Shown: positions 7,318-55,987, counted from the first letter of the stretch. The stretch: 64,000 nucleotides of DNA from a bacterium (GCA_030602615.1 JAUVZM010000005.1:5094-69093), one strand, 5' to 3'. Made by a program: numbers and translations. The notes: generated by a model not told the origin, from the letters alone.

Positions 7318-7520
7318 GATAGGCCCCCGGATGGCTACCTACCAACAGGCCCAAACAGAATTCAAGGCAACAGCGGCTGGGACCTTCATATCGGGGCAAC
7401 AGCGGGTCAGGTTAGCGGTTACAGGCCTCGACGAGGCAATGAGCAGACCACTGGCGCTATATGATGATTTTATGAGTTAACAGCATCTGCGCCAAGCAAG
7501 TAGCCGCCCACAGCTTGTGG

Positions 7521-9113: not shown

Positions 9114-9130
9114 AGCCGCAATAGTTCACC

Positions 9131-9451
9131 TCAGCAAGATGCCGCCGGGGCTGCCGGAGCTACGACTTTTCCTCTTGCCAGCTTCTTCAGGAAACGCTCT
9201 ATGCGAACAAGTGCCTCTTTCAGTTGCTCCAGGCCGGTGGCGTAGGTGCATCGTAAGTAGCCCTGACCACTGGCGCCAAAGGCAGTGCCAGGAACTACTG
9301 CCACCGCCTCTTCAAACAGCAATGCCCTGGCGAACTGTTCGGAGGTCAGGCCGGTATGCTCAACAGAGGGAAACGAGTAGAAAGCACCTTTCGGTTCCCC
9401 ACAGGGCAATCCGAGGCTATCACTGAGCAGTTCACAGCTCGATATAGCCAA
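9131..9451 (-). pseudogene. remnant of a class I aminotransferase (C-terminal ~100 aa only)
   Basis: The sequence KGAFYSFP...LLFEEAVAVVPGTAFG..GYLRCTYATGLEQLKEALVRIERFL is the canonical AspC-type C-terminus. There is no room for the ~300-aa PLP-binding N-terminal part, because secF occupies the upstream DNA in another frame. Confidence 0.5.
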
Positions 9452-28167: not shown

Positions 28168-28494
28168 ATGCAAACGCTTGCCACCAGGTGCGTTCATAAA
28201 CTCAGAGTAGAAGTTCTCAAGGCGCTCGCCTCCCACACTAGACTTCACATAATTGCTCTGTTGCGCGACGGCGAGATGGCTGTTTGCGATATTGCTGACG
28301 CACTGGGGAACAATCAGTCTACCATATCGTGTCACTTGAATACACTTCGGGCCAGCGGACTGGTGACAACGCGCAAAGAGGGCAATCGGGTTCACTACCG
28401 GCTGGCCCACGAGGCAGTTGACGAGCTGCTCGAGCTGGTTGATGAGATACTGAAGGCCCAGTGCCTAAGTAACAGTGAAACACTGGACCTGTAG
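28168..28494 (+). CDS. ArsR/SmtB family metal-responsive transcriptional repressor
   Basis: A winged-helix HTH LKALASHTRLHIIALL...CVCDIA-type fold is present. Metal-ligand Cys residues lie at the alpha-3 position (MAVCDIAD). The length is 108 aa. Confidence 0.8.
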   Translation: MQTLATRCVHKLRVEVLKALASHTRLHIIALLRDGEMAVCDIADALGNNQSTISCHLNTLRASGLVTTRKEGNRVHYRLAHEAVDELLELVDEILKAQCLSNSETLDL

Positions 28495-28548: not shown

Positions 28549-28671
28549 ATGTGTGGATGCTGTGAGCCAAAGAAGGAAAAAGAGTGCTGTGAGCCGAAGC
28601 AGGAAGAGTGCTGCCCGGAAGAAAAGAAAGAAGAGAAGTGCGAAGAGGAAAAGAAAAGCTGTTGCGAATAG
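28549..28671 (+). CDS. unannotated 40-aa Cys-rich microprotein, a candidate metallothionein-like metal binder (MCGCCEPKKEKECCEPKQEECCPEEKKEEKCEEEKKSCCE)
   Basis: It is not in the ORF track, which reports a different frame here. A perfect SD AGGAGGTG lies 7 nt before the ATG. Ten Cys residues fall in CC/CxC clusters within an E/K matrix. It lies immediately downstream of arsR and is followed by a textbook intrinsic terminator. Confidence 0.5.
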   Translation: MCGCCEPKKEKECCEPKQEECCPEEKKEEKCEEEKKSCCE

Positions 28672-28680
28672 CAATAGCAC

Positions 28681-28721
28681 AGACTGGGGCCTGATGCAAC
28701 ACAGGCCCCAGTCTTTTTTTG
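28681..28721 (+). terminator. rho-independent terminator (13-bp stem agactggggcctg / caggccccagtct, then T7)
   Basis: A perfect GC-rich hairpin followed by TTTTTTT lies 10 nt after the microprotein stop. The convergent NIL-ferredoxin gene ends 23 nt beyond it. Confidence 0.6.
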
Positions 28722-28743: not shown

Positions 28744-29151
28744 TTAGAACTCCACCTTCATCGCCCGCGGCGGGCAGGCGGGCACACACAGCTCACAGGC
28801 GACGCAGCGATCCGAGTCGAAGTGTACCTCCTGCGTCGCCACTTCCCGGTACAGCGCCTCCGTGGGGCAGATCGTCAGGCACGCCCCACAGTGGTTGCAT
28901 CGGTCTTCGTCGCGCACCACATCGCGTTCCAGCGGCTCGACGGCCACACCCTGGTCGCGCGTCCAGGCCAGCCCCTGACGCAGGTTCTCTTCGCTGCCCT
29001 CCAGTCCCACCACCAGCAGACCCTCCGATTCGGGAGTAATATTGGCGCGCAGGATGTTCAGCTCCAGGTCGTAGTTCTTCACCAGGTGCGAGACGACTGG
29101 TTCATCTATCAGATGACGCGGGTAGCGTAAGACTACGCGGCGCGTTGCCAT
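28744..29151 (-). CDS. NIL-domain 4Fe-4S ferredoxin (partner of the DUF39 homocysteine-synthesis protein)
   Basis: An N-terminal NIL domain is followed by two CxxCxxCxxxCP motifs (CNHCGACLTICP and CVACELCVPACP). The gene is adjacent to DUF39, as in the methanogen-type pathway. Confidence 0.75.
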   Translation of the reverse strand: MATRRVVLRYPRHLIDEPVVSHLVKNYDLELNILRANITPESEGLLVVGLEGSEENLRQGLAWTRDQGVAVEPLERDVVRDEDRCNHCGACLTICPTEALYREVATQEVHFDSDRCVACELCVPACPPRAMKVEF

Positions 29152-30366
29152 CTAACTCACCTCCGGCTGGACAGGACGTTCGCGCAGCGGTTTGAAGCTG
29201 ACTCCCGAGTCGGCAGAGGGTATCTGCTGGACTGGCTCGCTGAGCAGAAACTCCCCACGCTGGATCCAGTCCTTGAGAATCCCGGCGATCTGTCGTGCCT
29301 TGGGGTAGCTGGATAGTGAACCAGTCGGCACCTCTCGGCCATTGATCTGTATGCTGCCGCTGCGCAACCGTTTGTAGTCAACATAACCCAGCGGGCCGCC
29401 CTCGTTGTAGGGGTAGCCCCGACTGTAGTCCACAATCGGTGCAACGATATCTTCGTCTTTCACCGCGGTGTACAGCGCCATCTCTTCGTCGAGAATGGGA
29501 ATGGCCGTGCCAATACCAACCGTCAGCGAGACACCATATCCGTACATACTGACTCCCACCATCCACTGCGGGTCCATCTGCTTCATATCGCCGACTACCG
29601 CCAGGGTGCCAGCGCCCCCCTTGGGCACACCATTGCCGGCGCGGGCTGCGGTGGGATTGTGCTGGGTCCCCGGCCAGAAGACGTAGCCCTCGGCCCCGCC
29701 CAGGAATATGCGCGAACCGATCCCAATGGTTCGGTAGTAGGGATCGTTCAGCAGCGGGCTGAGCTGGCCGGCCGAGCAGTAGTTGGCATTGCCCAGGTCG
29801 CGCTTGAGCACGCCCATATAGGTGTAGATGTCACGCTCCTCGTTTAGATTCACCGCAACGCTGTAATTCTGGTAGCAGTTGCGAGGATTGAGCAGCGTGC
29901 ATTCGTTGAGGTCCTGGATATTGATCCAGGTATCCAGCTCCCTGCGCGGGTAGCAGTCTGTGCCATAGCCGCTCGCCCGTAACCGGACATCCTTGCCAGC
30001 CACCAACTCCTCGATGACATGTCCGCCGCCGTAGCGGAATTCGCCGGGATGCTGCGCGTTGAGCGGATCGCCTTCGACGACCGCGGTGGCACCGATATAC
30101 AGGTCCACCGCAGCCAGGCCCCCGTAGGCCGGCACGTCATTGAGCCACCCCTCGGAGGCACGGATCCGCGGTGTGCTGTGCCCGAAGTTAATCAGAGCAC
30201 CCGAAGAGCACATCGGCGCGAAGGTCCCCGTGGTCACAACGTCCACCTGCGCGGCAGCCCCGGCTGGCCCCTTCTCGTCAACTACATCTATCATCTCCTC
30301 GGCGGTGACAACCACTACTTCGCCGCCGCGGATTCTATCGTTGATTTCCTGGTAGGTCTTGGCCAC
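29152..30366 (-). CDS. DUF39 (COG1900) homocysteine biosynthesis protein, sulfide-dependent
   Basis: The 404-aa protein shows conservation typical of the MA1821 family. A GTG start is preceded by GGAGGTGA. It lies adjacent to a NIL-ferredoxin. Confidence 0.75.
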   Translation of the reverse strand: MAKTYQEINDRIRGGEVVVVTAEEMIDVVDEKGPAGAAAQVDVVTTGTFAPMCSSGALINFGHSTPRIRASEGWLNDVPAYGGLAAVDLYIGATAVVEGDPLNAQHPGEFRYGGGHVIEELVAGKDVRLRASGYGTDCYPRRELDTWINIQDLNECTLLNPRNCYQNYSVAVNLNEERDIYTYMGVLKRDLGNANYCSAGQLSPLLNDPYYRTIGIGSRIFLGGAEGYVFWPGTQHNPTAARAGNGVPKGGAGTLAVVGDMKQMDPQWMVGVSMYGYGVSLTVGIGTAIPILDEEMALYTAVKDEDIVAPIVDYSRGYPYNEGGPLGYVDYKRLRSGSIQINGREVPTGSLSSYPKARQIAGILKDWIQRGEFLLSEPVQQIPSADSGVSFKPLRERPVQPEVS

Positions 30367-30563
30367 TATAGTTCACCTCCAGCGGCGCCGACCCGGATGC
30401 GGGCAGACGCCGAGACAACTTGAGTTATTGCAAACTAGGATGCTGCCGACAATACGGCTCGGGTCGCGTCGGCTGAGCCGACGCCCGTGCATAGCCATGC
30501 CCAGCACCCGCCGGTTGTATTCTCGTCGCCCTATCATCCGGATCTCACCTACCTTTCCGTGCA

Positions 30564-30896
30564 TTATCTGAAGCAGGCCACCTTGCCGCCCTCCGGCATC
30601 CAATGGTGACGAACACACTCACAGCATAGCCCCAGTCGGGGGCAATCCTGCGCTTCACAGAGGCACGCTTCAGCGTTGCGCGACTGATTGTCACAGGAGC
30701 TTACCAGTCCCTGCAGGTTAAGTGTGTCTTCAGGGCGCCCGGCCCCGCCCATGCAGGCGGTCTCAGGCCACTGGGTGCTGTTTCGATGATACGCGGCGCA
30801 CTCACAACATATCCCCCGACGCGGACAGGATTCCTCCAGACACGGACACATCTGGATGTTGATCTCGTAGTTGGGACATTGTTGGGCCAATGCCAT
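30564..30896 (-). CDS. hypothetical Cys-rich protein with two tandem C-x-C-x4-C-P-R-x-G-x-C-C-E-C-x3-[YH]-H modules
   Basis: The repeats CPCLEESCPRRGICCECAAYH and CLCEAQDCPRLGLCCECVRHH are internal duplicates. The chosen start is ATG at 30896, with AAGGGAAGTGAG upstream. It lies between thi4 and DUF39. Confidence 0.5.
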   Translation of the reverse strand: MALAQQCPNYEINIQMCPCLEESCPRRGICCECAAYHRNSTQWPETACMGGAGRPEDTLNLQGLVSSCDNQSRNAEACLCEAQDCPRLGLCCECVRHHWMPEGGKVACFR

Positions 30897-30956
30897 ATTC
30901 TCACTTCCCTTTTTCTGATGGCGGCGAGACGACTTGCCGCTTTGCAACTCGCAGTG

Positions 30957-31754
30957 TCATTCGTCAGCAAGTCGGTCGGCAGCCAGTTGCGCGGCCTTCT
31001 GGCCGGACAGGAACATACCGCCGAATATCGCTCCCATGCGCGGGGCGCCGGCCGCAGCATTGGCGGCCATCCCCGCCACTATTACGCCGGGGTAGACTTC
31101 CTTAGTCAGCTCGACGATATGGCCTTCAGCTTCAGTGGCATTCATCGAACTCTCGCCGGCTATCTGACCGGTAGGAGTATCGAACTCAGCACCAGCAATC
31201 TTGCGCTCGATGGTTCGCAGCACGTCCGCGTCATGACCAGTGGCATCAATGACCAGTCGTGCGCTGACCGCCAGCGGGTCTACGTGCATCTGGGCGCGCT
31301 GCACCGCATCCCAGTTCAGTACCACCCCACAGACCCGAGCGTGCTCATCAATCACTACGTCCTCAACCAGCATACCCACCCAGATATGGGCGCCAGCGTC
31401 TACCGCGGCAGCAGTGCATTTGGATACACATTCGACTGAATCGGCCACGTGATAACCCTCGCCTGCCTGCTGGACACTGACCCCGACTTCCTTGACGAGC
31501 TGCACGGCCTCATCCTGAATAACTATGCGCGGAAAGAGCATGCCTCCGCCCCACATGCCCCCGCCCACATGCAGGTTACGCTCGAATACTGCCACTTGAT
31601 AACCAGCCTCGGCCAGCAGCCGCGCCGCGGTTATGCCGGAGGGCCCGGCGCCGACCACGGCTACATCCAGGCGCGTGTCGGCTACAAAATCTTCAGCAAA
31701 GCTTCTGACGATAAAACGAGTAACTCGGGTTTCATCAATGTGACGCAGTGACAT
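30957..31754 (-). CDS. thi4: thiazole synthase Thi4 family (His-type, sulfide-dependent; ADP-thiazole synthase)
   Basis: The FAD/NAD fold motif VAVVGAGPSGITAARLLAEAG and the Thi4 motif GGGMWGGGMLF are present. The active-site region DATGHDADV has His where yeast THI4 has its suicide Cys. A TPP riboswitch precedes the gene. Confidence 0.8.
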   Translation of the reverse strand: MSLRHIDETRVTRFIVRSFAEDFVADTRLDVAVVGAGPSGITAARLLAEAGYQVAVFERNLHVGGGMWGGGMLFPRIVIQDEAVQLVKEVGVSVQQAGEGYHVADSVECVSKCTAAAVDAGAHIWVGMLVEDVVIDEHARVCGVVLNWDAVQRAQMHVDPLAVSARLVIDATGHDADVLRTIERKIAGAEFDTPTGQIAGESSMNATEAEGHIVELTKEVYPGVIVAGMAANAAAGAPRMGAIFGGMFLSGQKAAQLAADRLADE

Positions 31755-31775
31755 AAAAAGCAGACCTCCTCAGAT

Positions 31776-31925
31776 TAGGTCTGCCAGCGGAGAAACCGGT
31801 CCTCCCGAGGACCGATTGAGAAGTGTAGTTTCGCGGAGCACTTCCCTTCGCCGGCATTATCCGGATCAGGTTCATGGGGTCAGCGGCCCGGCCGCTTTCT
31901 CAGCAAGCAAGCTCCCCCAGTTGCC
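31776..31925 (-). promoter_or_regulatory. TPP (THI-box) riboswitch in the thi4 leader
   Basis: The minus-strand RNA reads ...CUGAGAaagcgg...ACCCcaugAACCUGAUCcGGAUAAUGCCgGCGaAGGGAAg..., matching the THI-element consensus. A downstream hairpin (cagaccu...aggucug) includes the GAGGAGG SD and precedes the thi4 ATG. Confidence 0.75.
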
Positions 31926-31973
31926 AACATTTCCGTGTTATTATAGGCCCGCGGGTCTCCCCCACAGGCTCGT

Positions 31974-32783
31974 CTATTCTATTCTATCGGCGGGCTCCCT
32001 GTCAAGCAACAGTTCATCAGGCGCCACCTGAGTGAGTGTTTTCCTGTTCGCGGCGATGGGCACAATCTCAATTTCACCGCCCACCACCATTTGATCGCCG
32101 CAAATAGCGACCGCTCCCGAAATACCGGGCAACTGAGTGGCCCACGTGACGGCCTGCTGGCAGTCCTGCGGACCCTGTATCCGATTCGCCGTGGCTGTGG
32201 CCACCGCGTCAGCCAGGGCAGTATTCGGGGCGACCACCACGGCCGCATCAGCCCGACCGTTGCTCACCGAGTGGCCCACGGTGCCGGAGGAGGTACAGAC
32301 TCCCAGCCGCACACCACCCGGAATAGCCAGACCAATCTGCCCACTGAATCTCGAGGAACCCGACTCAATCGCCACCACCCGAGCAACTTCCGTCGCCAGG
32401 AAGATGTCACCACCGTTTTCGACAATGACCTGCCTGCTACTTGCCAGCAGTTGCTGCCCGACATAGGCGGCAACAGCACCAGCCACTGCCGCCATCGGCC
32501 CGGTGCCGGCCTGCTGGGCGGCCTGGTACATATCTCTGACCAGCGCGGGGCACTTCTCCGGCTCCGGCAAAGGCCCGAGACTGGTGGCGAAGTGCGGATA
32601 GTTCTGGATATGTCTTTCAATCTGGGTGCGGGCCTGCCTGATCGACTCCAGGGCTTCATCAGTCAGCCGCGCCTCAGCCTGTATGTACAGATCGGTCTCT
32701 CCCACCACCACAGCAAAGCCAACCAGATCGGGACTTTCAGCAGATTGTCTGTAGACTCGCGGCTGGTAGGTCACAGGTGGCAC
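31974..32783 (-). CDS. UPF0280/ApbE-like family protein
   Basis: The ApbE-like pattern (GAVAAYVGQQLL...ENGGDIFL..., GS.R, AVVVAPNTALADA) was assigned from memory. The start is uncertain: the ORF-track start at 32966 would overlap the thioredoxin gene by 160 nt, so GTG at 32783 is proposed. Confidence 0.5.
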   Translation of the reverse strand: MPPVTYQPRVYRQSAESPDLVGFAVVVGETDLYIQAEARLTDEALESIRQARTQIERHIQNYPHFATSLGPLPEPEKCPALVRDMYQAAQQAGTGPMAAVAGAVAAYVGQQLLASSRQVIVENGGDIFLATEVARVVAIESGSSRFSGQIGLAIPGGVRLGVCTSSGTVGHSVSNGRADAAVVVAPNTALADAVATATANRIQGPQDCQQAVTWATQLPGISGAVAICGDQMVVGGEIEIVPIAANRKTLTQVAPDELLLDREPADRIE

Positions 32784-32806
32784 CTGATTTGCGCCCGCAG
32801 AGATTG

Positions 32807-33289
32807 CTACTGCTCGGGGGAAAGAGCCGTGACTATTTTGTCGCGCAGTTGCTTCGGCGGCCAGAAACCAATGGCTCGGTCGATCTCCTCGCCATTGTTG
32901 ATAATCACTATCGCGGGCAGGTTGATCACCTGAAACTGCCTGGCCAACTTTGGATTTGCGTCCCAATCAACACTTACAAACTTCAGCTTGCCAGCAAATT
33001 CTTCCGCCAACTGCTCCAAAGTGAGCTTGACTATGGGGCAATACACACACCAGCTTGCCCAGAAGTCCACAACCACCGGAATATCGGACTGGATCACCTC
33101 TTGCTCAAAGTTACCTTGATCCACTGCCAAAATAGTGCCCTCGGCTGCTGGATGGCCCTGCTGGTCAGCTTGCGAGCGTGGAGGCGGCTCAGAGGTCACC
33201 TGTCCATCTTTCGGGCAACATCCGGCTATGGTCAGCGCTATTGCCAAAATCGCAATGCCAACAATCGTCTTGCTGGTGGTGAAACTCAT
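32807..33289 (-). CDS. thioredoxin-family lipoprotein
   Basis: A lipobox IAGC follows the signal peptide MSFTTSKTIVGIAILAIALT. The thioredoxin active site WASWCVYCP is present. Confidence 0.75.
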   Translation of the reverse strand: MSFTTSKTIVGIAILAIALTIAGCCPKDGQVTSEPPPRSQADQQGHPAAEGTILAVDQGNFEQEVIQSDIPVVVDFWASWCVYCPIVKLTLEQLAEEFAGKLKFVSVDWDANPKLARQFQVINLPAIVIINNGEEIDRAIGFWPPKQLRDKIVTALSPEQ

Positions 33290-33867: not shown

Positions 33868-34833
33868 ATGTCTGACACTACGTCAGGGCAAGTGCCACTG
33901 CTCCAGAAAATGGAGATTGCGGACATTCTGGATACCGCAATCCGCCTGTACCGGCACAATTTCACCCTCTTTATGGAAATTGTGGCCGTGGTGCAGGTAT
34001 TTCTGATGGCCATATATGTGATTGGGATGTGGGCGGCCGCCCAGACGGTGATGACAACCGGCGGCGAAGAGATCCCCTGGCAGGCTCTGCTGGGCCTGGG
34101 GCCGCTGGGGCTGTTGTACATAGGGGGCTGGATACTGCTTTTCCCCCTGAGCGAGGCAGCCCTGGCCTTTGCCGTCTCCGAGACCTATCTGGGTCGGCGC
34201 ATCAGCGTCCTAGAGGCCTACCGGCGGATGTGGCCGCTGATCTGGCGGCTGCTGGGGACGATGATCCTGGTCTCGATTGTCATCTCACTGGGCACCGGTA
34301 TGTGCCTTATTCCGGGTCTGCTGGTGTGGGTCTGGTTCGCCATTACCACGCCAATCGTCGCCCTGGAGCGCACTGCAGGCCCGACAGCGATGGATCGTTC
34401 CTACCGGCTGGTCTCCGGCCACTGGTGGCGGGTATTGGGTGCGCTGTTGCTGCTGCAGTCGATCATAATCGTTGCGACCCTGGCCATCTCCCTGCCGCCT
34501 ATGCTTGCCGTGATGCTACTGCTCGGCGAGTCCAACCCCCTGCTGGCCCAATCGCTAACGACGGCGGTCCAGACCATAACCAACATTGTTGTTCGACCGG
34601 TGTTGATGATTGGTACGGTCCTGATATACTACGACCTGCGCATTCGCAAGGAGGGCTTCGACCTGGTCACGCTGACTCAGGCTCTGGAGCGCAGTCGCGG
34701 TGCAGGTGTGGGCGAAGAGAAGCCGGCAGCCTCCCAACCGTCCGATCGGGAGCTACCGCCGGCCCCTGACACACGAGTGGCCCTGCCCCCTCGGCCCAAC
34801 GAATCTGAATCAGGACAACAGCCCCCCACTTAG
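33868..34833 (+). CDS. glycerophosphoryl diester phosphodiesterase membrane-domain (GPDPase_memb) family protein
   Basis: A multi-transmembrane protein carries the family hallmark VLIYYDLRIRKEGFDL near the C-terminus, followed by a Pro-rich tail. Confidence 0.6.
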   Translation: MSDTTSGQVPLLQKMEIADILDTAIRLYRHNFTLFMEIVAVVQVFLMAIYVIGMWAAAQTVMTTGGEEIPWQALLGLGPLGLLYIGGWILLFPLSEAALAFAVSETYLGRRISVLEAYRRMWPLIWRLLGTMILVSIVISLGTGMCLIPGLLVWVWFAITTPIVALERTAGPTAMDRSYRLVSGHWWRVLGALLLLQSIIIVATLAISLPPMLAVMLLLGESNPLLAQSLTTAVQTITNIVVRPVLMIGTVLIYYDLRIRKEGFDLVTLTQALERSRGAGVGEEKPAASQPSDRELPPAPDTRVALPPRPNESESGQQPPT

Positions 34834-34847
34834 GATTGATATAGCTG

Positions 34848-35276
34848 ATGTCAACCGATGCTGAGGCCGTTCTGTACACAGACGGATCCTCGCTGGGTAA
34901 TCCCGGGCCGGCTGGGGCCGGCTTCGTCCTGGAAGGCCCTGGCGACAGTGTGGTGGAACGGGCGATCCCTCTGGGCGAGACGACGGTGGGGGTAGCCGAA
35001 TACCGCGCGCTCATTGCCGGCCTCTCCGAGGCTATATCCCGAGGTGTGCAGGGGGTGCGAGTCTATAGCGATAGTCAATTTCTGTGCCGCCAAATCCAGG
35101 GGAAGTATAAGGTCCGTTCGGCCAATATCCGCCCGCTGTACGAGTGGGCGTGCAAGCTAGTTGGCCAGTTTGACAAGTTTCAGATCGAACACACTGCCCG
35201 CGAGGGCAATCAGCGCGCCGACGTACTGGCGAGGCAGGCCGCCGAACAAGCCAAGCAGAACGCGAAGGAGACTTAG
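34848..35276 (+). CDS. rnhA: ribonuclease HI
   Basis: The motifs LYTDGSSLGNPGPAG, VAEYRALI, VYSDSQ and NQRAD carry the D-E-D-D catalytic residues. Confidence 0.8.
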   Translation: MSTDAEAVLYTDGSSLGNPGPAGAGFVLEGPGDSVVERAIPLGETTVGVAEYRALIAGLSEAISRGVQGVRVYSDSQFLCRQIQGKYKVRSANIRPLYEWACKLVGQFDKFQIEHTAREGNQRADVLARQAAEQAKQNAKET

Positions 35277-35335
35277 CGCGGAAGCTGAAACTAAGTTGCA
35301 GTCATTTGAAAAGAACAGATCACGAGGAGTGACAT

Positions 35336-36430
35336 TTGATTATGAACAATGAGAAGATTGGATGGGGCATCATTGGCTGCGGTGTTATTGCTCCGCTTCA
35401 TGCCGATGCAGTCCAGGCGAACGAGCAGGCCGAGCTGGTTGAGGTCTGTGACATAGTGGAGCAAAAGGCCGACAAGCTGGCCGACGAGCACGATTGTTCA
35501 TACGTGACCAGCATCGAAGAGCTGCTGGCCAACGATGACATCCAGGCGGTTTCGATCTGTACGCCCAGCGGAATGCACTCCGAGCAGGCCATTGCCGCCG
35601 CCCAGTCCGGCAAGCATATCCTGTGCGAAAAGCCCCTGGATATTACCCTGGAGAAGATTGATGCAATGATTGAAGCCGCCGAGACCAACGCTGTCAAGCT
35701 GGCCGGCGTATTCCAGTTGCGCACCTATCCGTCCTTTCAGAAGGTTCGGCAGGCAGTTCGCGACGGCAAGATAGGAAAGCTGGTGCTGGGCGAATGCCAC
35801 CAGAAGTGGTTTCGCGCCCACGAATACTATGCCAGCGGGGACTGGCGCGCCACCTGGGAGCTGGACGGCGGCGGTGCCCTAATGAACCAGTGTATTCACA
35901 GCGTTGATCTGCTGACCTGGATTATGGGCGACATAGCCCGACTCTCCTCTTACTGCCGCCGACTGGTTCGTAACGTCGAGGTGGAAGATACCAGTGTCAC
36001 CAATCTGGAGTTCACCAACGGCGCACTGGGCAGCTTTGTCGGCACCACCTCAGTAACTCCCGCCGAGAATAGGCTGCTGGAAATCCATGGTGACACCGGC
36101 ACCATCAAGGTCGAAAGCGAAAGGATCACCAAGTGGGCCGTAGAGGGCGAAGAAGAAGCGATTGAAGACGAAGAGGTCCAGGAAGGCACTGCCACCGACC
36201 CGGCGGCAGTGGCTGCGGCCGGCCACATCGCACACGTGCAGGATCTGTGCGAGGCGATTATCAACGACCGGGAGCCGACCATCCCCGGTCGCGAAGCCCG
36301 CAAGGCTGTCGAGATAATCAAGGCCATCTACCTGTCCAGCCGCCTGGGGGGAAGTACTGTGGAGCTGCCGCTCAGCTACGAGGACGACAGCCCGGGCATC
36401 TACCCACCCCAGACCTGGCCGGAGTGGTAG
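35336..36430 (+). CDS. Gfo/Idh/MocA family oxidoreductase
   Basis: An N-terminal Rossmann fold (GWGIIGCGVIA) and the EKP motif (ILCEKPL) are present. Confidence 0.8.
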   Translation: MIMNNEKIGWGIIGCGVIAPLHADAVQANEQAELVEVCDIVEQKADKLADEHDCSYVTSIEELLANDDIQAVSICTPSGMHSEQAIAAAQSGKHILCEKPLDITLEKIDAMIEAAETNAVKLAGVFQLRTYPSFQKVRQAVRDGKIGKLVLGECHQKWFRAHEYYASGDWRATWELDGGGALMNQCIHSVDLLTWIMGDIARLSSYCRRLVRNVEVEDTSVTNLEFTNGALGSFVGTTSVTPAENRLLEIHGDTGTIKVESERITKWAVEGEEEAIEDEEVQEGTATDPAAVAAAGHIAHVQDLCEAIINDREPTIPGREARKAVEIIKAIYLSSRLGGSTVELPLSYEDDSPGIYPPQTWPEW

Positions 36431-43948: not shown

Positions 43949-46900
43949 GTGGCTGATGATACCATCCGCATTCGGGGCGCCGCCCAACACAATTTGCGTA
44001 AGGTTGACCTCGATCTGCCGAAGAACCGCCTTATTGTTTTCACTGGCATCAGCGGCTCGGGCAAGTCATCCCTGGCCTTTGATACCTTGTTTGCCGAGGG
44101 GCAACGGCTGTATGTGGAGTCGCTTTCCACCTATGCCCGGCAGTTTCTCCAGGAGATGCCCCGCCCGCAGGTGGATAGCATCGAGGGGCTGGCCCCGGCT
44201 GTAGCCATTGACCAGGCCAAACGCAGCCATAATCCTCGCTCGACAGTAGCCACTATCACCGAGATATACGATCACCTGCGGGTGCTGTTCGCCGCCATCG
44301 GCACGCTGCATTGCCCTAAGTGTGGGCGCGAAGTAGGCGCCCAAACTCGGGAAAGTGTGATACAGCGTATCGTCGGCCTGGCCAGCGAGAGCACCATGCA
44401 GATTCTGGCACCGCTGGAGCGTGGGCGCAAGGGCCAGTTCAAGGAACTCTTCGCCGACCTGCGGCAAGCAGGCTACGCTCATGCCCGCGTGGATGGCCGG
44501 TTCATCCACCTTACTGAACCCCCGGAACTGGACCGCTACCGCCGTCATGACGTTGAGGTGGTGGTTGACCGGCTGGCGGCTGGTGCACACTCCCCCAGCC
44601 GCATAGGCGAGGCCATCGACATTGCCTTTGATCTGGGTGAGGGTAATCTCATCGCAGTGCCCGAAGACGGTGAGGATATCCTGTTTAGCCGCAATTTCGC
44701 CTGCCCCGACTGTCAGATCAGCATCCCCGAGCCTACCCACACCTCGTTTTCGTTCAACAGCCCCCGCGGTATGTGCCCGACCTGCGAGGGCCTCGGTGAG
44801 GCCCGCACCATTGACCCGGAACTGCTGGTCGCTCATCCCGACAGGTCGCTGGCCTCCGGGGCGATACCGCTACTGAGGTCGCTGCGCAGCGCCCGCCGCC
44901 GCCACTGGTATCAGGGCGTCGCCGACCATTACGGATTCACCCTCGACACGCCCTGGAAGGAGCTAACTGAGAAGCAACGCCACGCCTTACTGTATGGTTC
45001 CGGCGAGGAACTGATTGAGTTTTACTATCGCCATGCCCGCCACGGCTGGGAGTGGCGCCACGCTGATGTATGGGAGGGGATAATTCCCGGGCTGACGCAC
45101 CGGTACAAACGGGCTGAGTCCCGCCTGCTGCGCCAGCGTTTCGAGCAGGTCATCCGCCAGCAGCCGTGCCCCGACTGCCACGGTCAGCGGCTGCGCCCCG
45201 AGAGCCTGGCAGTGACCATCGGAGGGAAGTCAATCGCCGCCATTACCGGCCTCACTGTAGATCAGGCCGGCGAGTTCTTTGCCAAGCTAACACTCAACGA
45301 AAACGACGCACTCATAGCCGAAGACGCTCTTAAGGAGATCACGGAGCGGCTGTCGTTTCTGAAAGAGGTGGGTCTGCACTACCTGACGCTGGATCGCACT
45401 GCACCGACCCTATCCAGCGGCGAAGCCCAGCGCATCCGCCTGGCCGGACAGGTGGGCAGCGGCCTGACTGATTGCCTCTATGTCCTGGATGAGCCCAGCA
45501 TCGGCCTGCACTACCGTGACCAGGGGCGCCTGCTGGAGGCACTCAAACGACTACGGGATCTGGATAACACGGTGATCGTCGCTGAGCACGACGAGCAGAC
45601 CATCACCAATGCTGACTATGTTGTGGACTTTGGTCCGGGAGCAGGTGCCCAGGGCGGCCAGATTGTCAGCGTCGGCACTGTAACAGAAATAAAGAACGAT
45701 TTAGACTCGCTGACCGGCGACTATCTGGCCGGACGGCGCAGCATCCCGATTCCCAGTCAGCGTCGTGACGGCAACGGGGCCAGCCTGACACTGTGCGGAG
45801 CCCAGCACAATAACCTGAAGGATATAGATGTGAAATTCCCGCTGGGCCGGTTTGTTTGCATCACCGGCGTGTCAGGCTCAGGCAAGAGTTCGCTGATTGC
45901 CGACACCCTCCATCCGATTCTGGCCGCCGAGCTACACAGCGCCGAGACTGAGCCGGGGGAGTTTGATCATCTCGAAGGTATTGAGAACGTGCGTAAGGTG
46001 GTGATGATTGACCAGTCACCGATCGGCCGCACCCCGCGAAGCTGCCCGGCCACCTACACCAAAGTCTTCGACGATATCCGCCGGCTGTACGCGCAACTGC
46101 CTGCCTCGCGGGAACGCGGCTATACGCCTGGCCGATTCAGCTTCAACGTTAAGGAGGGCCGCTGCCCCCACTGCGACGGCTACGGCGCCGTCAAGCTACA
46201 ATCGGATTTCCTGGCTGACGTGTGGGTGCAATGTGAAGAGTGTCATGGACAGCGGTTCGACCGGGAAACGCTAACCATTCAGTACAAGGGCGCCGGCATC
46301 GCTGAGGTGCTGGATATGGAGGTCAGCCGGGCGCTGGAGCACTTCGCTAATGTTCCCAAAATCAAGCGGGTGCTGCAGGTCCTGGCCGATGTCGGGCTGG
46401 GCTACATCAAGCTGGGACAGTCGGCAACTACCCTCTCCGGCGGCGAGGCCCAGCGAGTCAAGCTGGCCCGCGAGCTGGCCCGTCCCCAGCAGGGCGACTG
46501 CCTGTATCTGCTTGATGAACCTACCACCGGCCTGCACTTTGAGGATGTCCGCCATCTGCTGGCCCTGCTGGGACGGATGGTGGACGGCGGTAATACTGTA
46601 ATCATCATCGAGCACCATCCTGACATCATCAAGACAGCCGATTATGTAATTGATCTGGGGCCGGAGGGTGGCGAGGAAGGCGGCGAGGTGGTCGCGACAG
46701 GTACCCCGGAGCAGGTCGCCAAATGCCGCCGCTCGCACACCGGTCAACTGCTCGACCAGATACTCAACGGTGCCGACGGGAGCCAGCCAATCCCACGAGT
46801 TGGCACTCAGCGGCGCAGTAGCCAGCCCAAATGTGAGGCCATCCAAGTGTGGGGCGCCCGCGAGCATAATCTCAAGAATATCAGCGCCAGGGTCCCCCGC

Positions 46901-49900
46901 CGGCAGATGGTCGTCTTCTCGGGTGTATCAGGCTCGGGCAAGACCTCCCTGGCAGTAGACACCATCTACGCCGAAGGTCAGCGGCGCTTTGTCGAATCGC
47001 TATCTTCCTATGCCCGCCAATTTGTCAGCGAGATGCCCAAGCCCAAGGTAGACCGGGTCCGGGGCCTATCGCCGGCGGTAGCTATTGACCCGCGCAACAC
47101 GGTCCAGACGCCGCGCTCAACTGTCGGCACAATGACCGAGATATACGACTACCTGCGGGTGCTGTACGCCCGGCTGGGTGTTCCCCACTGCCCGGAGTGC
47201 GGCAGCAACCTGGGTGCAGCCTCCGTTGATGATATTGTTGACCGCCTGCTGAGCAAGCTGCACCGCCGCGAGATTATGATCCTGGCGCCTCTCCAGCCTA
47301 AAGCCACCGAAGAATACCAGGAACTGCTCGAACGGCTACAGCGGCAGGGCTGGGTGCGCATTCGCCTGGACGGACAAATCCAGCGGCTGCCGTTTGCCTC
47401 TGCGCCGGACCGGCGCAGCCACCACAAACTTGAACTGGTGGTAGACCGCCTGCGCGTGGCAGAAAAGCACAGGTCGCGCCTCGCTGAAGCCGTGGAGACC
47501 GCCCTTGCCGTCGGAGGGGGGCAAGTAATAGCAGCACCTACGGCTGAGACGGCCGCACCAGACGAAGAGCTGACTTTTTCCAGCGAGCTTTCCTGCCCTA
47601 ACTGCGGCACCGCCTACCAGGAATTAGAGCCGCGCAGCTATTCGTTCAACCATGCCCAGGGCTGGTGCCCGGTTTGCGAAGGGCTCGGCACTCAACCAGG
47701 TGTAGAACCGGCGGCGCTGGTGCCGGACGAGAGCAAGTCAATCCGCGAGGGCGCCGTCAGTCTGTGGGGGCCATTGGAACGGGACAGCCTGCTGTATAAG
47801 CTGCTTGCCGCGGTCGCGGAAGCCGCCGGGTTCAGTCTCAATCAGCCCTTTGCCGAGTTGACGTTCGCCCAGCGGAATCTTGTCTTTTCCGGCGGTGATG
47901 AGCAATTCACCGTTGACGGGATGACTGTGCGATTCAAGGGATTAGTGGAAGGTATCCGGTCGGCAGTGCAGTTGGGCGATAAGATGCGGCGCAGATTTGC
48001 CCGCGCCTGGACCGATGTGCCCTGCCACGCCTGCGGTGGAGGACGGCTGCGTCCCGAGCCCGCCGCCACTCGCTTTCGTACTCACACACTGCCTGAGCTG
48101 TGCCGCTACTCACTGGAAGAGGCACTCGGCTTTTTCGAGCAACTCGACCTATCATCCACTGAAGAGCAGCGCGCCGGAGAGATTCCTGAAGAGGTGCTCA
48201 GCCGGCTGCGGCTGCTGGTGGATATCGGCCTCGATTATCTCACATTGGATCGGCCAGCAGCGTCACTTTCCGGCGGGGAGGCCCAGCGTATCAAGCTGGC
48301 CAGCCAGCTCCGATCCGGACTCACCGGCGTACTTTATGTGCTCGACGAGCCGACTGTCGGCGTTCATCCCCGCGACAATGAGCGGATGCTGGCGGCGCTG
48401 GATTCGCTGCGGGATTTGGGCAACAGCCTCATCATCGTCGAGCACGACCCCCAGACCATCAACCGGGCTGACTATGTTATGGACTTCGGACCGGGCGCCG
48501 GCCGCGAGGGTGGCGAGATAATCGCCACTGGCACCCAACGAGGCATCAGGCGGCGCAACTCGCCGACCGGCCACTACCTGGCCGGCAAGCTGGCTGTCCC
48601 TGTTCCTCAACCCCGGCGGTGGCCCAATGACGGCAACAATAGTGAACTGAAGATTCTGGGCGCGGCCCATCATAATCTCAAAGATGTTGATGTAACCGTC
48701 CCGCTGGGCTGCCTGGTTTGCGTCACCGGCCCGTCTGGCTCCGGCAAAAGCTCGCTTATCGAGGAGATCCTTTATCCGGAGCTGGCCTGGCGGCTGCAGG
48801 GCAAAGCGACTACGCCAGGGCGGCATCGGGACATCATCGGCAGCGAAGCTGTTGACAGGGTGATAAATATCGACCAGTCGCCGATCGGCCAGTCGCCGCG
48901 CTCCAACGCCGCTACTTACACCGGCATCTTTGACCTGATCCGCGAGTTCTATGCCAGCCTGCCGGAGGCGCGCATGCGCGGCTATACCTCCGGCTGGTTT
49001 AGCTTTAACAATGCGGGAGGGCGTTGCGAACACTGCCAGGGGATGGGGACAATCCACGTGGAGATGCACTTTCTGCCCGATGTCTGGGTGACCTGCGAGG
49101 AGTGTCAGGGGCGGCGGTACAAGCCGGAGATACTGGAGATCGAATACAAACACCGCAATATCTCTGATATTCTAGAAACAACTGCCGCTGAAGCATTGGA
49201 GCTGTTTGCTGACTTTCCCAGGTTGCACCGGATGCTTAGCGTAATGTGCCAGGTCGGGCTGGGCTACCTTCCGCTGGGGCAAGCTGCGCCCACCCTGTCG
49301 GGAGGCGAGGCCCAGCGGGTCAAGCTGGTCCGCGAACTGGCCCGGCCCCGCCGCGGTCATACTATCTATCTGCTGGATGAGCCGACCACTGGCCTGCATC
49401 CCGCCGACATCATCAAGCTGCTATGCGTGCTAAATCGGTTGGTCGAACAGGGCAATACAATGGTGGTCATTGAGCACAACCTTGACGTCATAAAGACTGC
49501 TGACTACGTCATTGACCTGGGGTCGGGAGGTGGCGACCGGGGCGGGGAGGTGTGCGCTGCCGGTACTCCCGAGCAAGTTGCCCAAAGCGATTCACCTACT
49601 GCTATTTACCTGAAGAAGGCGCTGGCAGCAAGTCCCACGGTCGGTCGCCAGGAGCTAACCGCACCGCTGCTGGAGACCAAACCCGGCGGCAAGGTGGCGG
49701 CAATGCGCTCGGAGGTCCAGGCGCCCTGGCAGCGCGACCCGGCAAAGTGGCATCAGGAGCAGCGCACAACCGCCGACGGCGAGCAGCGCGCCTGGGATGT
49801 CGAAGCGCTCACTGTGCTCGAGGAAGCTATCAGCCAGCTAGCCGACCCACCCGACGGAGACTGGGAGCATCCCCGCTACATCAAGTATCAGCTCGATGGC

Positions 49901-50215
49901 TCCAGCGACTGGTTCGTGCGGGCGCGCACCGACAAGAAATGGTACCTGGACCTGCAACTGCGCACCGAAAAGGGACTTCTTGACGAAGTGCAACTGGCCC
50001 AGCGCCTTGCTCTGCCCACCTGGAACGAGATTGAAGACCTGCCCAAGTACGGCGAGGGCGCTCGCGTGCGGGTACACACCCGTGCTGCTGACTACGACAG
50101 GATTAGCCTGCAGATCTTCTCGGCCGATGACCTGCGTCAGCCACAGTTTGCCAGCTTTCTGGCAACTTGCTACCAGGGCTACCGGCGCATGATCGGATGG
50201 AAGGAGGGCGGCTGA
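43949..50215 (+). CDS. uvrA: tandem-fused double UvrA (two complete UvrA modules in one 2088-aa chain) with a ~190-aa uncharacterised C-terminal domain
   Basis: Module 1 (~aa 1-955) and module 2 (~aa 960-1890) each carry two ABC ATPase domains: Walker A GISGSGKSS / GVSGSGKSS and GVSGSGKTS / GPSGSGKSS, plus LSGGEAQR signatures. Each also has zinc-finger CxxC pairs and a UvrB-binding-like region (ILAPL...VVVDR). The frame is continuous with no internal stop. The ~190-aa C-terminal tail has no recognised family. Confidence 0.8.
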   Translation: MADDTIRIRGAAQHNLRKVDLDLPKNRLIVFTGISGSGKSSLAFDTLFAEGQRLYVESLSTYARQFLQEMPRPQVDSIEGLAPAVAIDQAKRSHNPRSTVATITEIYDHLRVLFAAIGTLHCPKCGREVGAQTRESVIQRIVGLASESTMQILAPLERGRKGQFKELFADLRQAGYAHARVDGRFIHLTEPPELDRYRRHDVEVVVDRLAAGAHSPSRIGEAIDIAFDLGEGNLIAVPEDGEDILFSRNFACPDCQISIPEPTHTSFSFNSPRGMCPTCEGLGEARTIDPELLVAHPDRSLASGAIPLLRSLRSARRRHWYQGVADHYGFTLDTPWKELTEKQRHALLYGSGEELIEFYYRHARHGWEWRHADVWEGIIPGLTHRYKRAESRLLRQRFEQVIRQQPCPDCHGQRLRPESLAVTIGGKSIAAITGLTVDQAGEFFAKLTLNENDALIAEDALKEITERLSFLKEVGLHYLTLDRTAPTLSSGEAQRIRLAGQVGSGLTDCLYVLDEPSIGLHYRDQGRLLEALKRLRDLDNTVIVAEHDEQTITNADYVVDFGPGAGAQGGQIVSVGTVTEIKNDLDSLTGDYLAGRRSIPIPSQRRDGNGASLTLCGAQHNNLKDIDVKFPLGRFVCITGVSGSGKSSLIADTLHPILAAELHSAETEPGEFDHLEGIENVRKVVMIDQSPIGRTPRSCPATYTKVFDDIRRLYAQLPASRERGYTPGRFSFNVKEGRCPHCDGYGAVKLQSDFLADVWVQCEECHGQRFDRETLTIQYKGAGIAEVLDMEVSRALEHFANVPKIKRVLQVLADVGLGYIKLGQSATTLSGGEAQRVKLARELARPQQGDCLYLLDEPTTGLHFEDVRHLLALLGRMVDGGNTVIIIEHHPDIIKTADYVIDLGPEGGEEGGEVVATGTPEQVAKCRRSHTGQLLDQILNGADGSQPIPRVGTQRRSSQPKCEAIQVWGAREHNLKNISARVPRRQMVVFSGVSGSGKTSLAVDTIYAEGQRRFVESLSSYARQFVSEMPKPKVDRVRGLSPAVAIDPRNTVQTPRSTVGTMTEIYDYLRVLYARLGVPHCPECGSNLGAASVDDIVDRLLSKLHRREIMILAPLQPKATEEYQELLERLQRQGWVRIRLDGQIQRLPFASAPDRRSHHKLELVVDRLRVAEKHRSRLAEAVETALAVGGGQVIAAPTAETAAPDEELTFSSELSCPNCGTAYQELEPRSYSFNHAQGWCPVCEGLGTQPGVEPAALVPDESKSIREGAVSLWGPLERDSLLYKLLAAVAEAAGFSLNQPFAELTFAQRNLVFSGGDEQFTVDGMTVRFKGLVEGIRSAVQLGDKMRRRFARAWTDVPCHACGGGRLRPEPAATRFRTHTLPELCRYSLEEALGFFEQLDLSSTEEQRAGEIPEEVLSRLRLLVDIGLDYLTLDRPAASLSGGEAQRIKLASQLRSGLTGVLYVLDEPTVGVHPRDNERMLAALDSLRDLGNSLIIVEHDPQTINRADYVMDFGPGAGREGGEIIATGTQRGIRRRNSPTGHYLAGKLAVPVPQPRRWPNDGNNSELKILGAAHHNLKDVDVTVPLGCLVCVTGPSGSGKSSLIEEILYPELAWRLQGKATTPGRHRDIIGSEAVDRVINIDQSPIGQSPRSNAATYTGIFDLIREFYASLPEARMRGYTSGWFSFNNAGGRCEHCQGMGTIHVEMHFLPDVWVTCEECQGRRYKPEILEIEYKHRNISDILETTAAEALELFADFPRLHRMLSVMCQVGLGYLPLGQAAPTLSGGEAQRVKLVRELARPRRGHTIYLLDEPTTGLHPADIIKLLCVLNRLVEQGNTMVVIEHNLDVIKTADYVIDLGSGGGDRGGEVCAAGTPEQVAQSDSPTAIYLKKALAASPTVGRQELTAPLLETKPGGKVAAMRSEVQAPWQRDPAKWHQEQRTTADGEQRAWDVEALTVLEEAISQLADPPDGDWEHPRYIKYQLDGSSDWFVRARTDKKWYLDLQLRTEKGLLDEVQLAQRLALPTWNEIEDLPKYGEGARVRVHTRAADYDRISLQIFSADDLRQPQFASFLATCYQGYRRMIGWKEGG

Positions 50216-54553: not shown

Positions 54554-55105
54554 TCACCGAAGTTGCTCTGCAGCCAGTTGTGCGCCGCGCTGCAGGGCAG
54601 CGACATTTGTGGGAATGTAGTCGTGATGGCGCTCGGGCAGTATCCGATAGAGGGTCTCCTCAATTAGCTGTTCTTCGACTAACTCGGTTGTTGCCACATA
54701 GGCCCCCAGCAACACCATATTGGTAGCCCGTTCGCTGCCCAACTCCGCCGCAATATCAGTGGCCGCTACGGCTACCAGGTCAATGTCATCGCGCTTGACC
54801 TCATCGCCGGCAAGCGAGGAGTTCACAACCGCCAGTCCACCAGGCCGAACCCTGTTCAGATGGTTGTCAACGGCAATCCCATCCATGAGTATCATACTGC
54901 CTGGCTGGCCCACCACCGGGCTGCCCACCTCACCGTCAGCAATCACCAGAGTACAGGTAGCCCGGCCCCCGCGTACCTCCGGGCTGTACAGAGGAAACCA
55001 GGACAGCTCCAGGCCTGCTTCCAGAGCCGTCTGGGCCAAGAGCTGACCCGCCAACAGCACGCCCTGCCCGCCCATCCCTGCCATAAAGACTTCTTGCCGC
55101 ATCAA
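54554..55105 (-). CDS. porG: 2-oxoacid:ferredoxin oxidoreductase, gamma subunit
   Basis: The POR gamma motif AGMGGQGVLLAGQLLAQ is present and the gene follows the alpha and beta subunits. Confidence 0.8.
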   Translation of the reverse strand: MMRQEVFMAGMGGQGVLLAGQLLAQTALEAGLELSWFPLYSPEVRGGRATCTLVIADGEVGSPVVGQPGSMILMDGIAVDNHLNRVRPGGLAVVNSSLAGDEVKRDDIDLVAVAATDIAAELGSERATNMVLLGAYVATTELVEEQLIEETLYRILPERHHDYIPTNVAALQRGAQLAAEQLR

Positions 55106-55177
55106 TACCGCCTTCTCAACTCTTCACTCATATTCCTGCACAGTACTCTGTGGAGCAACCTGCCGGTAGTCGGCCGC

Positions 55178-55945: not shown

Positions 55946-55987
55946 AACGGCTACCTCCTATGAATGGCTGCGTCTCTGTCGTCACGC

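Follow-up and report, generated by a model that had tools for sequence, protein, structure and literature searches.

A likely neighbourhood of sulfide-consuming biosynthetic genes in an Armatimonadota bacterium, with a His-type Thi4 behind a TPP riboswitch and a conserved leader before DUF39

When genes for homocysteine and thiazole synthesis from sulfide stand side by side in a bacterium, do they make up one unit or several units that are controlled separately? This question is raised by a locus in a 64,000-nucleotide stretch of DNA (GCA_030602615.1, JAUVZM010000005.1:5094-69093), referred to here as the window, whose host is an Armatimonadota bacterium of the class Ca. Zipacnadia. All coordinates are those of the whole 64-kb window. 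Its minus strand, read from 33289 to 28744, carries genes for a thioredoxin (Trx)-like lipoprotein, a UPF0280/COG2122 protein, the thiazole synthase Thi4, a Cys-rich protein, a DUF39/HcyBio protein and a NIL-2x[4Fe-4S] ferredoxin (NIL-Fd; Table 1). A preliminary description of this DNA had reported five to six co-directional genes here as one cluster, and all six were found there, five of them with confirmation by profile searches. The clustering itself stood, as the gene order is kept in Zipacnadia relatives and thi4 adjoins DUF39 in four other lineages, namely Chloroflexota, Omnitrophota, Hadarchaeota and an unclassified bacterium; a plain single operon did not, given an internal promoter-like site, a thiamine pyrophosphate (thiamine diphosphate, TPP) riboswitch and a leader before DUF39. 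We consider it likely that sulfide-consuming biosynthetic genes of known enzyme families form a neighbourhood here, arranged in separately controlled modules, in an anaerobic member of the Armatimonadota. Related loci that were compared with the window are designated by L-numbers (L001, L008 etc.).

The thi4 product matched TIGR00292 ('sulfide-dependent ADT synthase') with 279.7 bits at a cut-off of 148.3 and PF01946 with 243.7 bits. Its closest solved relatives are the methanococcal (Methanocaldococcus/Methanococcus) structures 4Y4M, 4Y4N and 6HK1 and the Thermovibrio ammonificans THI4 structure 7RK0 (E = 1e-67 to 1e-71; PMC8454699). For the active site, a yeast THI4 reference was used that is identical to PDB 3FPZ/4Y4L except at residue 205 (Ser in the PDB entries). 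MAFFT and BLASTP agreed in aligning Q155-M-H157-V-D-P of the window protein with Q203-C-C205-M-D-P of the yeast protein, so that His157 takes the place of the suicide Cys. The preliminary description was thus right in calling this Thi4 a His-type enzyme, but it had placed the substitution in the wrong motif, ATGHD: His174 of ATGHD aligns with yeast His237 (TTGHD) and is invariant in every Thi4 examined, and the residue that replaces the Cys is that of QMHVDP. His was found at the Cys205 site in all 81 of the 81 close Thi4 relatives retrieved.

On this alignment the enzyme is predicted to be of the non-Cys (His), catalytic sulfide-dependent type (EC 2.4.2.59). Methanococcal and Thermovibrio Thi4s have been described as catalytic enzymes, and His-type Thi4s use free sulfide in vitro (PMC8454699). 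With these the window protein shares a full-length match, His at the suicide-Cys position and the HVDP and ATGHD motifs; it is unlike them in its Armatimonadota host and in the placing of its gene between COG2122 and the genes for homocysteine synthesis.

The DUF39 and NIL-Fd genes had been read as a homocysteine pathway, and the profiles, the conserved cysteines and the names of homologues all agree with this. The DUF39 protein, which has a GTG start and is without a CBS domain, matched PF01837 (HcyBio) with 506.2 bits (cut-off 26.2) over the full length of the model (positions 1-349 of 349), in line with the COG1900 membership first proposed for it. Cys53 (APMCSS) and Cys138 (GTDCYP) occur without exception in 71 of 71 DUF39 homologues of 47-97% identity, the closest of which are named 'homocysteine biosynthesis protein' or 'L-aspartate semialdehyde sulfurtransferase' in their source records. 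Two cysteines are nearly universal in COG1900a proteins, in MA1821 Cys131 and Cys54, the latter essential (PMC12068725); by published positions, Cys53 and Cys138 fit them. The MMP16/ComF subtype (COG1900d, with an inserted ferredoxin domain; MMP16 is the coenzyme-M synthase model) was ruled out by a score of only 117.7 bits on TIGR03287 (MMP16; cut-off 363.95) and by there being no Fer4 domain inside the protein. NIL-Fd, whose ATG directly abuts the DUF39 stop codon, gave 60.8 bits with PF09383 and 53.9 bits with Fer4 in two stretches, with the motifs CNHCGACLTICP and CVACELCVPACP, in agreement with the MA1822 type, which has an N-terminal NIL domain and two CxxCxxCxxxCP motifs; the NIL domain is reported to bind methionine (PMC12068725). 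Together, the two proteins are predicted to carry out the L-aspartate-semialdehyde sulfurtransferase (abbreviated L-ASST) type of homocysteine synthesis.

UPF0280, previously taken for a loose 'ApbE-like' extra, turned out to be COG2122, the third homocysteine-pathway gene known from genetics. In Desulfovibrio, DUF39, NIL/ferredoxin and COG2122 are all needed for homocysteine, and the fitness correlation of COG2122 with DUF39 is r = 0.98 (Price et al., PMC5764234). The COG2122 open reading frame (ORF) of the window gave no match in the Pfam scan of window proteins and 268.5 bits on NCBIfam PRK04334.1-3 (E = 5e-80, cut-off 271), where the match begins at ORF residue 66; the true start is probably GTG 32783 or 32774. 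Relatives at 61-89% identity are recorded as PF27030 AbpE_bact. By these similarities the protein is practically a COG2122 member and, by analogy with the genetic results, the presumed sulfide-trafficking partner of the DUF39 pathway. Since DUF39, NIL-Fd and COG2122 are all present, the locus has the complete known homocysteine trio.

The same three families make up the L-ASST systems of M. acetivorans (MA1821/MA1822/MA1715) and D. vulgaris Miyazaki (DvMF_1464/0262/0044; PMC5764234, PMC12068725), which the window resembles in the abutting of DUF39 and NIL-Fd, in both conserved cysteines and in the presence of COG2122 within the locus. The differences lie in the DUF39 protein, a bacterial short form without the C-terminal CBS domain, in the thi4 module and TPP riboswitch that separate COG2122 from DUF39, and in a structured leader/upstream ORF 5′ of DUF39, which has not been reported for those systems.

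Upstream of thi4, RF00059 recognised the TPP aptamer (THI element) along the whole model (positions 1-105 of 105), its 68.6 bits (E = 2e-11) exceeding the gathering score of 54.3; the aptamer ends 72 nt before the thi4 AUG. The putative promoter overlaps the COG2122 gene at its 3′ end, about 45 nt upstream of the aptamer, and an equivalent TTGACA...TAGAAT is seen in L129. Two hairpins follow the aptamer. The first is GC-rich and is succeeded by GUUUCU; the second, GGCAGACCU/AGGUCUGCU, pairs part of the thi4 Shine-Dalgarno (SD) sequence GAGGAGG and is succeeded by UUUUU-AUG. Judged by this arrangement, the platform may act on transcription and/or translation. A TPP element was also found 5′ of thi4 in seven related loci (L008-L011 and L013, 62-69 bits; L129, 65 bits; L001, 45 bits, E = 8.5e-7), and none was found in the thi4-DUF39 loci of other phyla that were scanned (L048, L069, L074, L085 and L105; L081, with no sequence upstream of thi4, was outside the scan).

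The Cys-rich gene begins 60 nt after thi4 with no terminator in between, so that the two genes form a TPP-controlled unit. As in other RF00059 units, a full-length aptamer above the gathering threshold precedes a thiazole synthase gene and is followed by terminator-like and SD-masking hairpins; this unit differs from the usual ones in that it contains a gene for a DUF6485-like protein and in that its transcription may continue into the homocysteine genes. The Cys-rich gene's stop codon shares bases with an AUG (UAAUG, 30566-30562, minus strand) in the window and L008 only; this AUG is in frame with the ORF of the DUF39 leader, which hints at translational coupling from the TPP-controlled unit to that leader.

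The leader occupies the 197-nt gap before DUF39 in the window and is conserved in six distinct sequences (window, L008, L011 (= L134/L135), L009, L129 and L138), always directly 5′ of DUF39, whether the gene upstream is the Cys-rich gene, thi4 or cysK. It folds better than shuffled sequences (z = -3.44). No Rfam match was obtained with 5.3 kb at E <= 5 or with the 241-nt leader alone at E <= 10; S-adenosylmethionine (SAM), S-adenosylhomocysteine (SAH), T-box and other known RNAs, which were looked for before DUF39, were thus not found, the sole match being a spurious 27-nt hairpin. An nhmmer search of 138 loci with the leader profile revealed no copies outside the Zipacnadia group. Upstream genes contain no convincing sigma-70 promoter for DUF39, only weak -10-like hexamers, and no terminator-like site was detected on the minus strand between 30563 and 30367.

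Within the leader, one reading frame is open in six of the six sequences (54-77 codons), while the other two frames have 1-5 stops, and its end falls at -7 to +28 nt relative to the start of DUF39. Indels in the leader are not multiples of three, yet one frame stays open throughout, and a 39-nt insertion in L008 is in frame and stop-free. The codons GUG..AUG-GCU/GGU-AUG (Met-Ala/Gly-Met) are invariant in a frame that has only 2-3 Met codons. A long-range helix (dG -30 to -44 kcal/mol, z -2.6 to -5.9), for which two subgroups use different sequences, joins the start of the upstream frame to the sequence that immediately precedes the DUF39 ribosome-binding site. A classical leader-peptide transcription attenuator was rejected, as there is no U-tract terminator hairpin and the frame reaches the DUF39 start instead.

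Leader-peptide attenuators such as trpL, hisL and leuL and ligand-sensing arrest peptides such as TnaC and SpeFL offer the nearest comparison. Like them, the DUF39 leader has a short frame with its own putative ribosome-binding site, clustered codons of the operon's amino acid and alternative RNA pairings; unlike them, it has no U-tract terminator, only 2-3 Met codons, and a frame of 54-77 codons that ends at or inside the DUF39 start. A literature search for methionine leader peptides found nothing relevant. We hypothesize that this leader, the most novel element of the locus, is perhaps methionine-sensing.

Upstream ORFs were also observed before DUF39 in other lineages. In a clade at 64-68% DUF39 identity (L089, L090, L092-L094, L124, L095 and L096), an ORF of the form M-x-M-(L/V)-W-I-M... 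lies directly 5′ of DUF39, at about -68 to -26 nt in L089, L090, L092-L094 and L124 and at -131 to +7/+26 in L095 and L096. Its Leu and Ile codons show synonymous changes, and a similar AAAGG(N)AGGUGA stands in front. These ORFs have a strong promoter (TTGACA...TAAATT) on their upstream side, along with a direct repeat, TTATCAAATTTATCAAATT, that resembles an operator. As two independent kinds of Met-clustered upstream frame precede DUF39, methionine-responsive, translation-dependent control is the most economical reading of both. A leader of about 370 nt was also seen 5′ of cysK-DUF39-NILFd-nifS-tusA-thiF-thiS-tsuA operons (L130, 3630-4010; L132, 3590-3950; L136, 3120-3510); it has a conserved mini-ORF AUG-(UGC/CGC)-AUG-(CCN/CGC)-UAG, i.e. 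Met-Cys/Arg-Met-Pro/Arg-stop, with no clear SD and no Rfam match.

The structure of the DUF39 leader would also suit a metabolite riboswitch of a new class, with SAM, methionine or homocysteine as possible ligands and an ORF that is incidental. A long closing helix surrounds a multi-helix core of about 100 nt with the invariant unpaired blocks GAUGAYAG, GGUG and AUGGCUAUG. The encoded peptide is poorly conserved but for a few codons, substitutions occur at all codon positions, and hairpin pairing is kept where the encoded residues are not (GRRLSRR, QHRPGRC, QRRPVRR). What a riboswitch leaves unexplained is the invariant SD-like block 5-7 nt 5′ of an invariant AUG, the frame that stays open in all six sequences despite the indels and the L008 insertion and ends so close to the DUF39 start, and the clearly translated Met-rich mini-ORFs that an unrelated clade has at the same place. 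We hold this explanation to be unlikely.

Comparison of gene neighbourhoods shows how far the modules travel together. Zipacnadia relatives keep the order Trx-COG2122-[TPP]-thi4-X-[leader]-DUF39-NILFd, in which X is the Cys-rich gene (window, L008), nothing (L011), cysK (L129, L138) or the Cys-rich gene and cysK (L009). In L009 the inserted cysK is flanked by an 81-nt partial copy of the leader (7453-7533) and a full copy (8985-9175), the footprint of a rearrangement of the sulfur island. Outside the class, a His-type thi4 stands directly 5′ of DUF39 in Dehalococcoidales (L081, followed by sufC and sufBD), in Omnitrophota (L074), in an unclassified bacterium (L069) and on a metagenome contig (L105). 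A Chloroflexota locus reads nadA-cutA-thi4-DUF39-NILFd-COG2122 (L085), and in Hadesarchaea thi4 is divergent from DUF39-NILFd-COG2122 (L048).

The thi4 and homocysteine modules could nevertheless be mere neighbours, independent end-product-regulated units in a loose 'sulfur island' left by rearrangement. Each module has its own regulatory element, the interval between thi4 and DUF39 varies as described above, and L001/L012 keep COG2122-thi4-CysRich without DUF39 at the locus. Among 41 DUF39-centred metagenome loci, DUF39 adjoins NIL-Fd in most, DUF39-NILFd(-COG2122) being the standard arrangement, and thi4 in only one; at 75% DUF39 identity the gene belongs to a different sulfur island, with cysK, nifS, tusA, thiF, thiS and tsuA in the order given above for the 370-nt leader. 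Loci centred on Thi4 give another picture: DUF39 lies <=10 kb from thi4 in about 10 of 80 such loci, which come from at least five lineages, far above the ~1% expected for unlinked single-copy genes in a few-Mb genome (kinship uncorrected), and in L081, L105 and L069 only 4-55 nt separate the two genes, which must be co-transcribed. Weighing both counts, we find mere adjacency rather unlikely. The low thi4-DUF39 counts and the loci L001/L012 make the linkage facultative, and what is supported is that enzymes consuming or relaying reduced sulfur are brought together repeatedly, though not obligatorily.

Published Thi4 neighbourhoods are of a similar kind. HcyBio is listed among the genes that cluster with Cys-type Thi4 (Oliveira-Filho et al. 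2026, PMC13325395), and small Cys-rich TRASH proteins (extra CC) occur beside non-Cys THI4 genes (Joshi et al. 2021, PMC8454699). There, as here and as with DUF6775, Thi4 stands by enzymes that make, relay or use reduced sulfur, and a small gene for a Cys-rich, putatively metal-binding protein abuts. In contrast to the Cys-type (suicide) Thi4s of the survey in PMC13325395, which does not mention COG2122, the window protein and its 81 relatives are of the His type, and the Cys-rich neighbour is a tandem DUF6485-like protein, of a family that differs from TRASH and DUF6775.

Such company also allows a reading in which DUF39 and NIL-Fd (with COG2122) serve thiamine synthesis by delivering activated sulfur to Thi4 under TPP control, instead of or besides making homocysteine. 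A sulfur relay to Thi4 has been proposed (PMC13325395) and COG1900 enzymes overlap in substrate use (PMC12068725). COG2122-thi4 adjacency persists where DUF39 is absent, no terminator was detected from thi4 to DUF39, so that a TPP-controlled transcript may span four genes, and the UAAUG overlap joins the Cys-rich gene to the leader frame. Against a thiamine role, DUF39 has its own conserved leader with Met codons, belongs by its 47-97% identities to a large family with both L-ASST cysteines, and usually has NIL-Fd, COG2122 and cysK as partners, not thi4; moreover, NIL is a methionine-binding module (PMC12068725) and His-type Thi4s work on free sulfide in vitro (PMC8454699). We regard this possibility as highly improbable and retain homocysteine synthesis as the predicted function of the pair.

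The protein encoded behind thi4 had been described as a novel tandem Cys-rich protein. Tandem it is, with two 8-Cys/1-His modules of the pattern C-x9-C-x-C-x4-C-x5-CC-x-C-x3-H-x9/10-C, but its novelty gave way to a divergent DUF6485-like domain. Nine sequences, which all begin at the same Met (ATG), keep the 16 Cys and 2 His without exception. Only eight word-sharing homologues were found among 5.8 billion proteins. A profile search of 1.84 billion representatives gave 136 proteins, mostly of a single module, 50-90 aa long and with the same Cys pattern; only about 10 tandem proteins were found. Some single-module relatives pass PF20095 (DUF6485), namely P0016 (52.7 bits) and P0029 (35.1 bits), whereas the window protein, as a whole or as either half, gave no match to PF20095 at E <= 10. 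Since the link to PF20095 is transitive only, through P0016 and P0029, we filed the protein as 'DUF6485-like'. It shares with DUF6485 the Cys pattern CPN..N...C.C....C.R.G.CC.C..YH......AC and is unlike it in having two modules in tandem and no direct match. A literature search on DUF6485 found nothing relevant, and the structure model was uninformative (predicted local distance difference test score 64; no fold match in the PDB, best E = 7.4).

Among the relatives, the Cys-rich gene lies directly behind thi4 only in L001/L012, L008 and L009. A general link of this gene to thi4 or TPP was ruled out by five other contexts with GHMP kinase, glycosidases or CrcB and no riboswitch. Our best guess, made with low confidence, is a metal or Fe-S/sulfide carrier that serves Thi4, because each module has 8 Cys and 1 His and the gene is co-expressed under TPP control with a metal- and sulfide-dependent enzyme. 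Its position recalls that of the TRASH genes that adjoin some non-Cys THI4s (PMC8454699).

The thioredoxin lipoprotein was present as previously described, with a signal peptide and lipobox (...LTIAG|C, IAGC) and the active site WCVYC read directly from the sequence. Its 88.7 bits on TIGR01068 fall short of that model's cut-off, 96.8. In the window, COG2122 starts 24-33 nt 3′ of the Trx stop; one or two Trx genes also lie upstream of COG2122 in relatives L001, L008-L011 and L134. The lipobox points to a location that is probably extracytoplasmic, which makes a direct role in cytoplasmic sulfur transfer doubtful; we consider such a role unlikely despite the kept synteny with COG2122.

We propose that the locus works as three modules. 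The first would comprise the Trx lipoprotein gene and COG2122, a factor presumably required with DUF39 for homocysteine formation. In the second, transcription would start at the promoter-like site and pass the TPP riboswitch into thi4 and the tandem DUF6485-like gene. From NAD, glycine and free sulfide, and with the help of a bound metal, Thi4 would make the thiazole precursor catalytically, a use of sulfide that is suggested by His157 at the site of yeast Cys205. With thiamine diphosphate plentiful, the riboswitch hairpins would terminate transcription and/or mask the thi4 ribosome-binding site. In the third, the leader of about 195 nt would precede DUF39 and NIL-Fd, a two-subunit L-aspartate-semialdehyde sulfurtransferase that would convert aspartate semialdehyde and sulfide to homocysteine with electrons from the ferredoxin. 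Methionine-sensitive translation of the 54-codon leader frame may set DUF39 translation via the long-range helix.

Several observations weigh against this model. The COG2122 score is 2.5 bits short of the PRK04334 cut-off. The counts of 1 in 41 and about 10 in 80 for thi4 beside DUF39 are low, and L001/L012, the nearest syntenic genome beyond the immediate group, has no DUF39 at the locus. In other places, genes for homologues of the Cys-rich protein adjoin unrelated genes, without a TPP riboswitch. Only six leader sequences, all from one lineage, are known, compensatory changes support only the central hairpin and the long-range helix, and without a U-tract terminator the leader is no classical attenuator. 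What is conserved in the 'Met' block could be an RNA motif and not codons, and an open frame of about 55 codons is expected by chance in ~15% of cases per independent sequence at the given GC content.

A more far-reaching version would have the leader act as a ribosome-dependent methionine sensor of the same family as the M-x-M-L/V-W-I-M mini-ORFs, COG2122 feed sulfide to both Thi4 and DUF39, and the DUF6485-like protein serve as a metal or Fe-S/sulfide chaperone of Thi4, like the TRASH/DUF6775 neighbours. Taken jointly, these proposals are doubtful.

Table 1. Features of the sulfur locus and its control elements, in window coordinates
Feature	Position	Strand	Basis
Thioredoxin-fold lipoprotein	32807-33289	-	PF00085, 79.4 bits; sequence
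UPF0280/COG2122 (MA1715/DvMF_0044 family)	ORF 32966-31974; likely gene 32783-31974	-	PRK04334.1-3
Promoter-like site TTGACA-18-TAGAAT (putative function)	31976-32005	-	11 of 12 consensus positions
TPP riboswitch aptamer (THI element), thi4 leader	31826-31928	-	RF00059
Riboswitch expression platform, two hairpins	31755-31816	-	Sequence and minimum-free-energy fold
Thi4 thiazole synthase, non-Cys (His157) type	30957-31754	-	TIGR00292, PF01946
Cys-rich protein, 110 aa	30564-30896	-	Conserved in nine sequences; no Pfam or NCBIfam match
Conserved structured leader, ~195 nt	30367-30561	-	Six sequences
Invariant SD-like GAAAGGUAGGUGA	30557-30545	-	5-7 nt before invariant AUG, six sequences
Leader open frame, 54 codons	AUG 30537 to UGA ending 30373	-	Sequence
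Long-range leader helix	~30549-30514 with ~30420-30383	-	Folding of six sequences
Invariant AUG-GCU-AUG	30498-30490	-	Six sequences
Central leader hairpin	~30486-30465	-	Compensatory changes
DUF39 SD GGAGGUGA	30380-30373	-	Sequence
DUF39/HcyBio (COG1900a-type), predicted L-aspartate semialdehyde sulfurtransferase catalytic subunit	29152-30366	-	PF01837
NIL + 2x[4Fe-4S] ferredoxin, predicted electron-donating/regulatory subunit	28744-29151	-	PF09383, Fer4
Bidirectional terminator hairpin, 13 bp, U-runs on both strands	28681-28714	both	Sequence and terminator scan

The surroundings of the locus were also inspected. The bidirectional terminator closes both the DUF39-NILFd unit and a convergent unit, in which a gene for an ArsR/SmtB-family metalloregulator (28168-28494, plus strand) is followed by an ORF of 40 aa (MCGCCEPKKEKECCEPKQEECCPEEKKEEKCEEEKKSCCE; 28549-28671, plus strand) with a strong SD, AAGGAGGTGA, that encodes a metallothionein-like peptide. 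This pair, which shares the terminator with the homocysteine genes, is kept 3′ of NIL-Fd in L088 and L123. On the other side, the plus-strand flank (33868-36430) encodes a YciC/UPF0259-like membrane protein, an RNase H/RVT_3 protein and a GFO/IDH/MocA oxidoreductase in the same order as in L001 and L134, so that the synteny reaches beyond the sulfur genes. A very long ORF of 2088 aa lies at 43949-50215 (plus strand).

A 2-oxoacid:ferredoxin oxidoreductase operon had been invoked as a sign of sulfide assimilation in an anaerobe. Its genes are real: the minus strand carries, across 54554-57040, 57298-58194 and 59705-61606, the gamma, beta and alpha genes and then those for NAD kinase and 1-deoxy-D-xylulose 5-phosphate (DXP) synthase, the oxidoreductase genes themselves being at 54554-57040. 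They lie 21 kb off, outside the locus, and point only to an anaerobic lifestyle; the region fits an anaerobe and is unrelated to the sulfur locus. 2-Oxoacid:ferredoxin oxidoreductase and DXP synthase are both TPP-dependent enzymes.

The enzymes of the locus are all of known kinds, and a His-type Thi4 located with the full L-ASST/COG2122 set goes only modestly beyond what has been published. It means that His-type catalytic Thi4s, and not just the surveyed Cys-type enzymes, keep company with sulfide-handling proteins (COG2122, L-ASST, cysK, Suf). This matters for the question of how catalytic Thi4s get their sulfide and metal when concentrations are low, which is relevant to the engineering of cheap thiamine synthesis in plants, and it offers two candidate Thi4 accessory proteins, COG2122 and the DUF6485-like protein. 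Worth pursuing are the riboswitch-controlled DUF6485-like gene, for which the TPP riboswitch provides the first function-linked context of such a protein, and the undescribed leader/upstream ORF of DUF39. If confirmed, this leader and the Met-clustered upstream frames would give the DUF39 homocysteine pathway its first described regulatory elements, and they would represent a rare case of methionine control by a leader peptide, as opposed to a SAM riboswitch, a T-box or a protein repressor.

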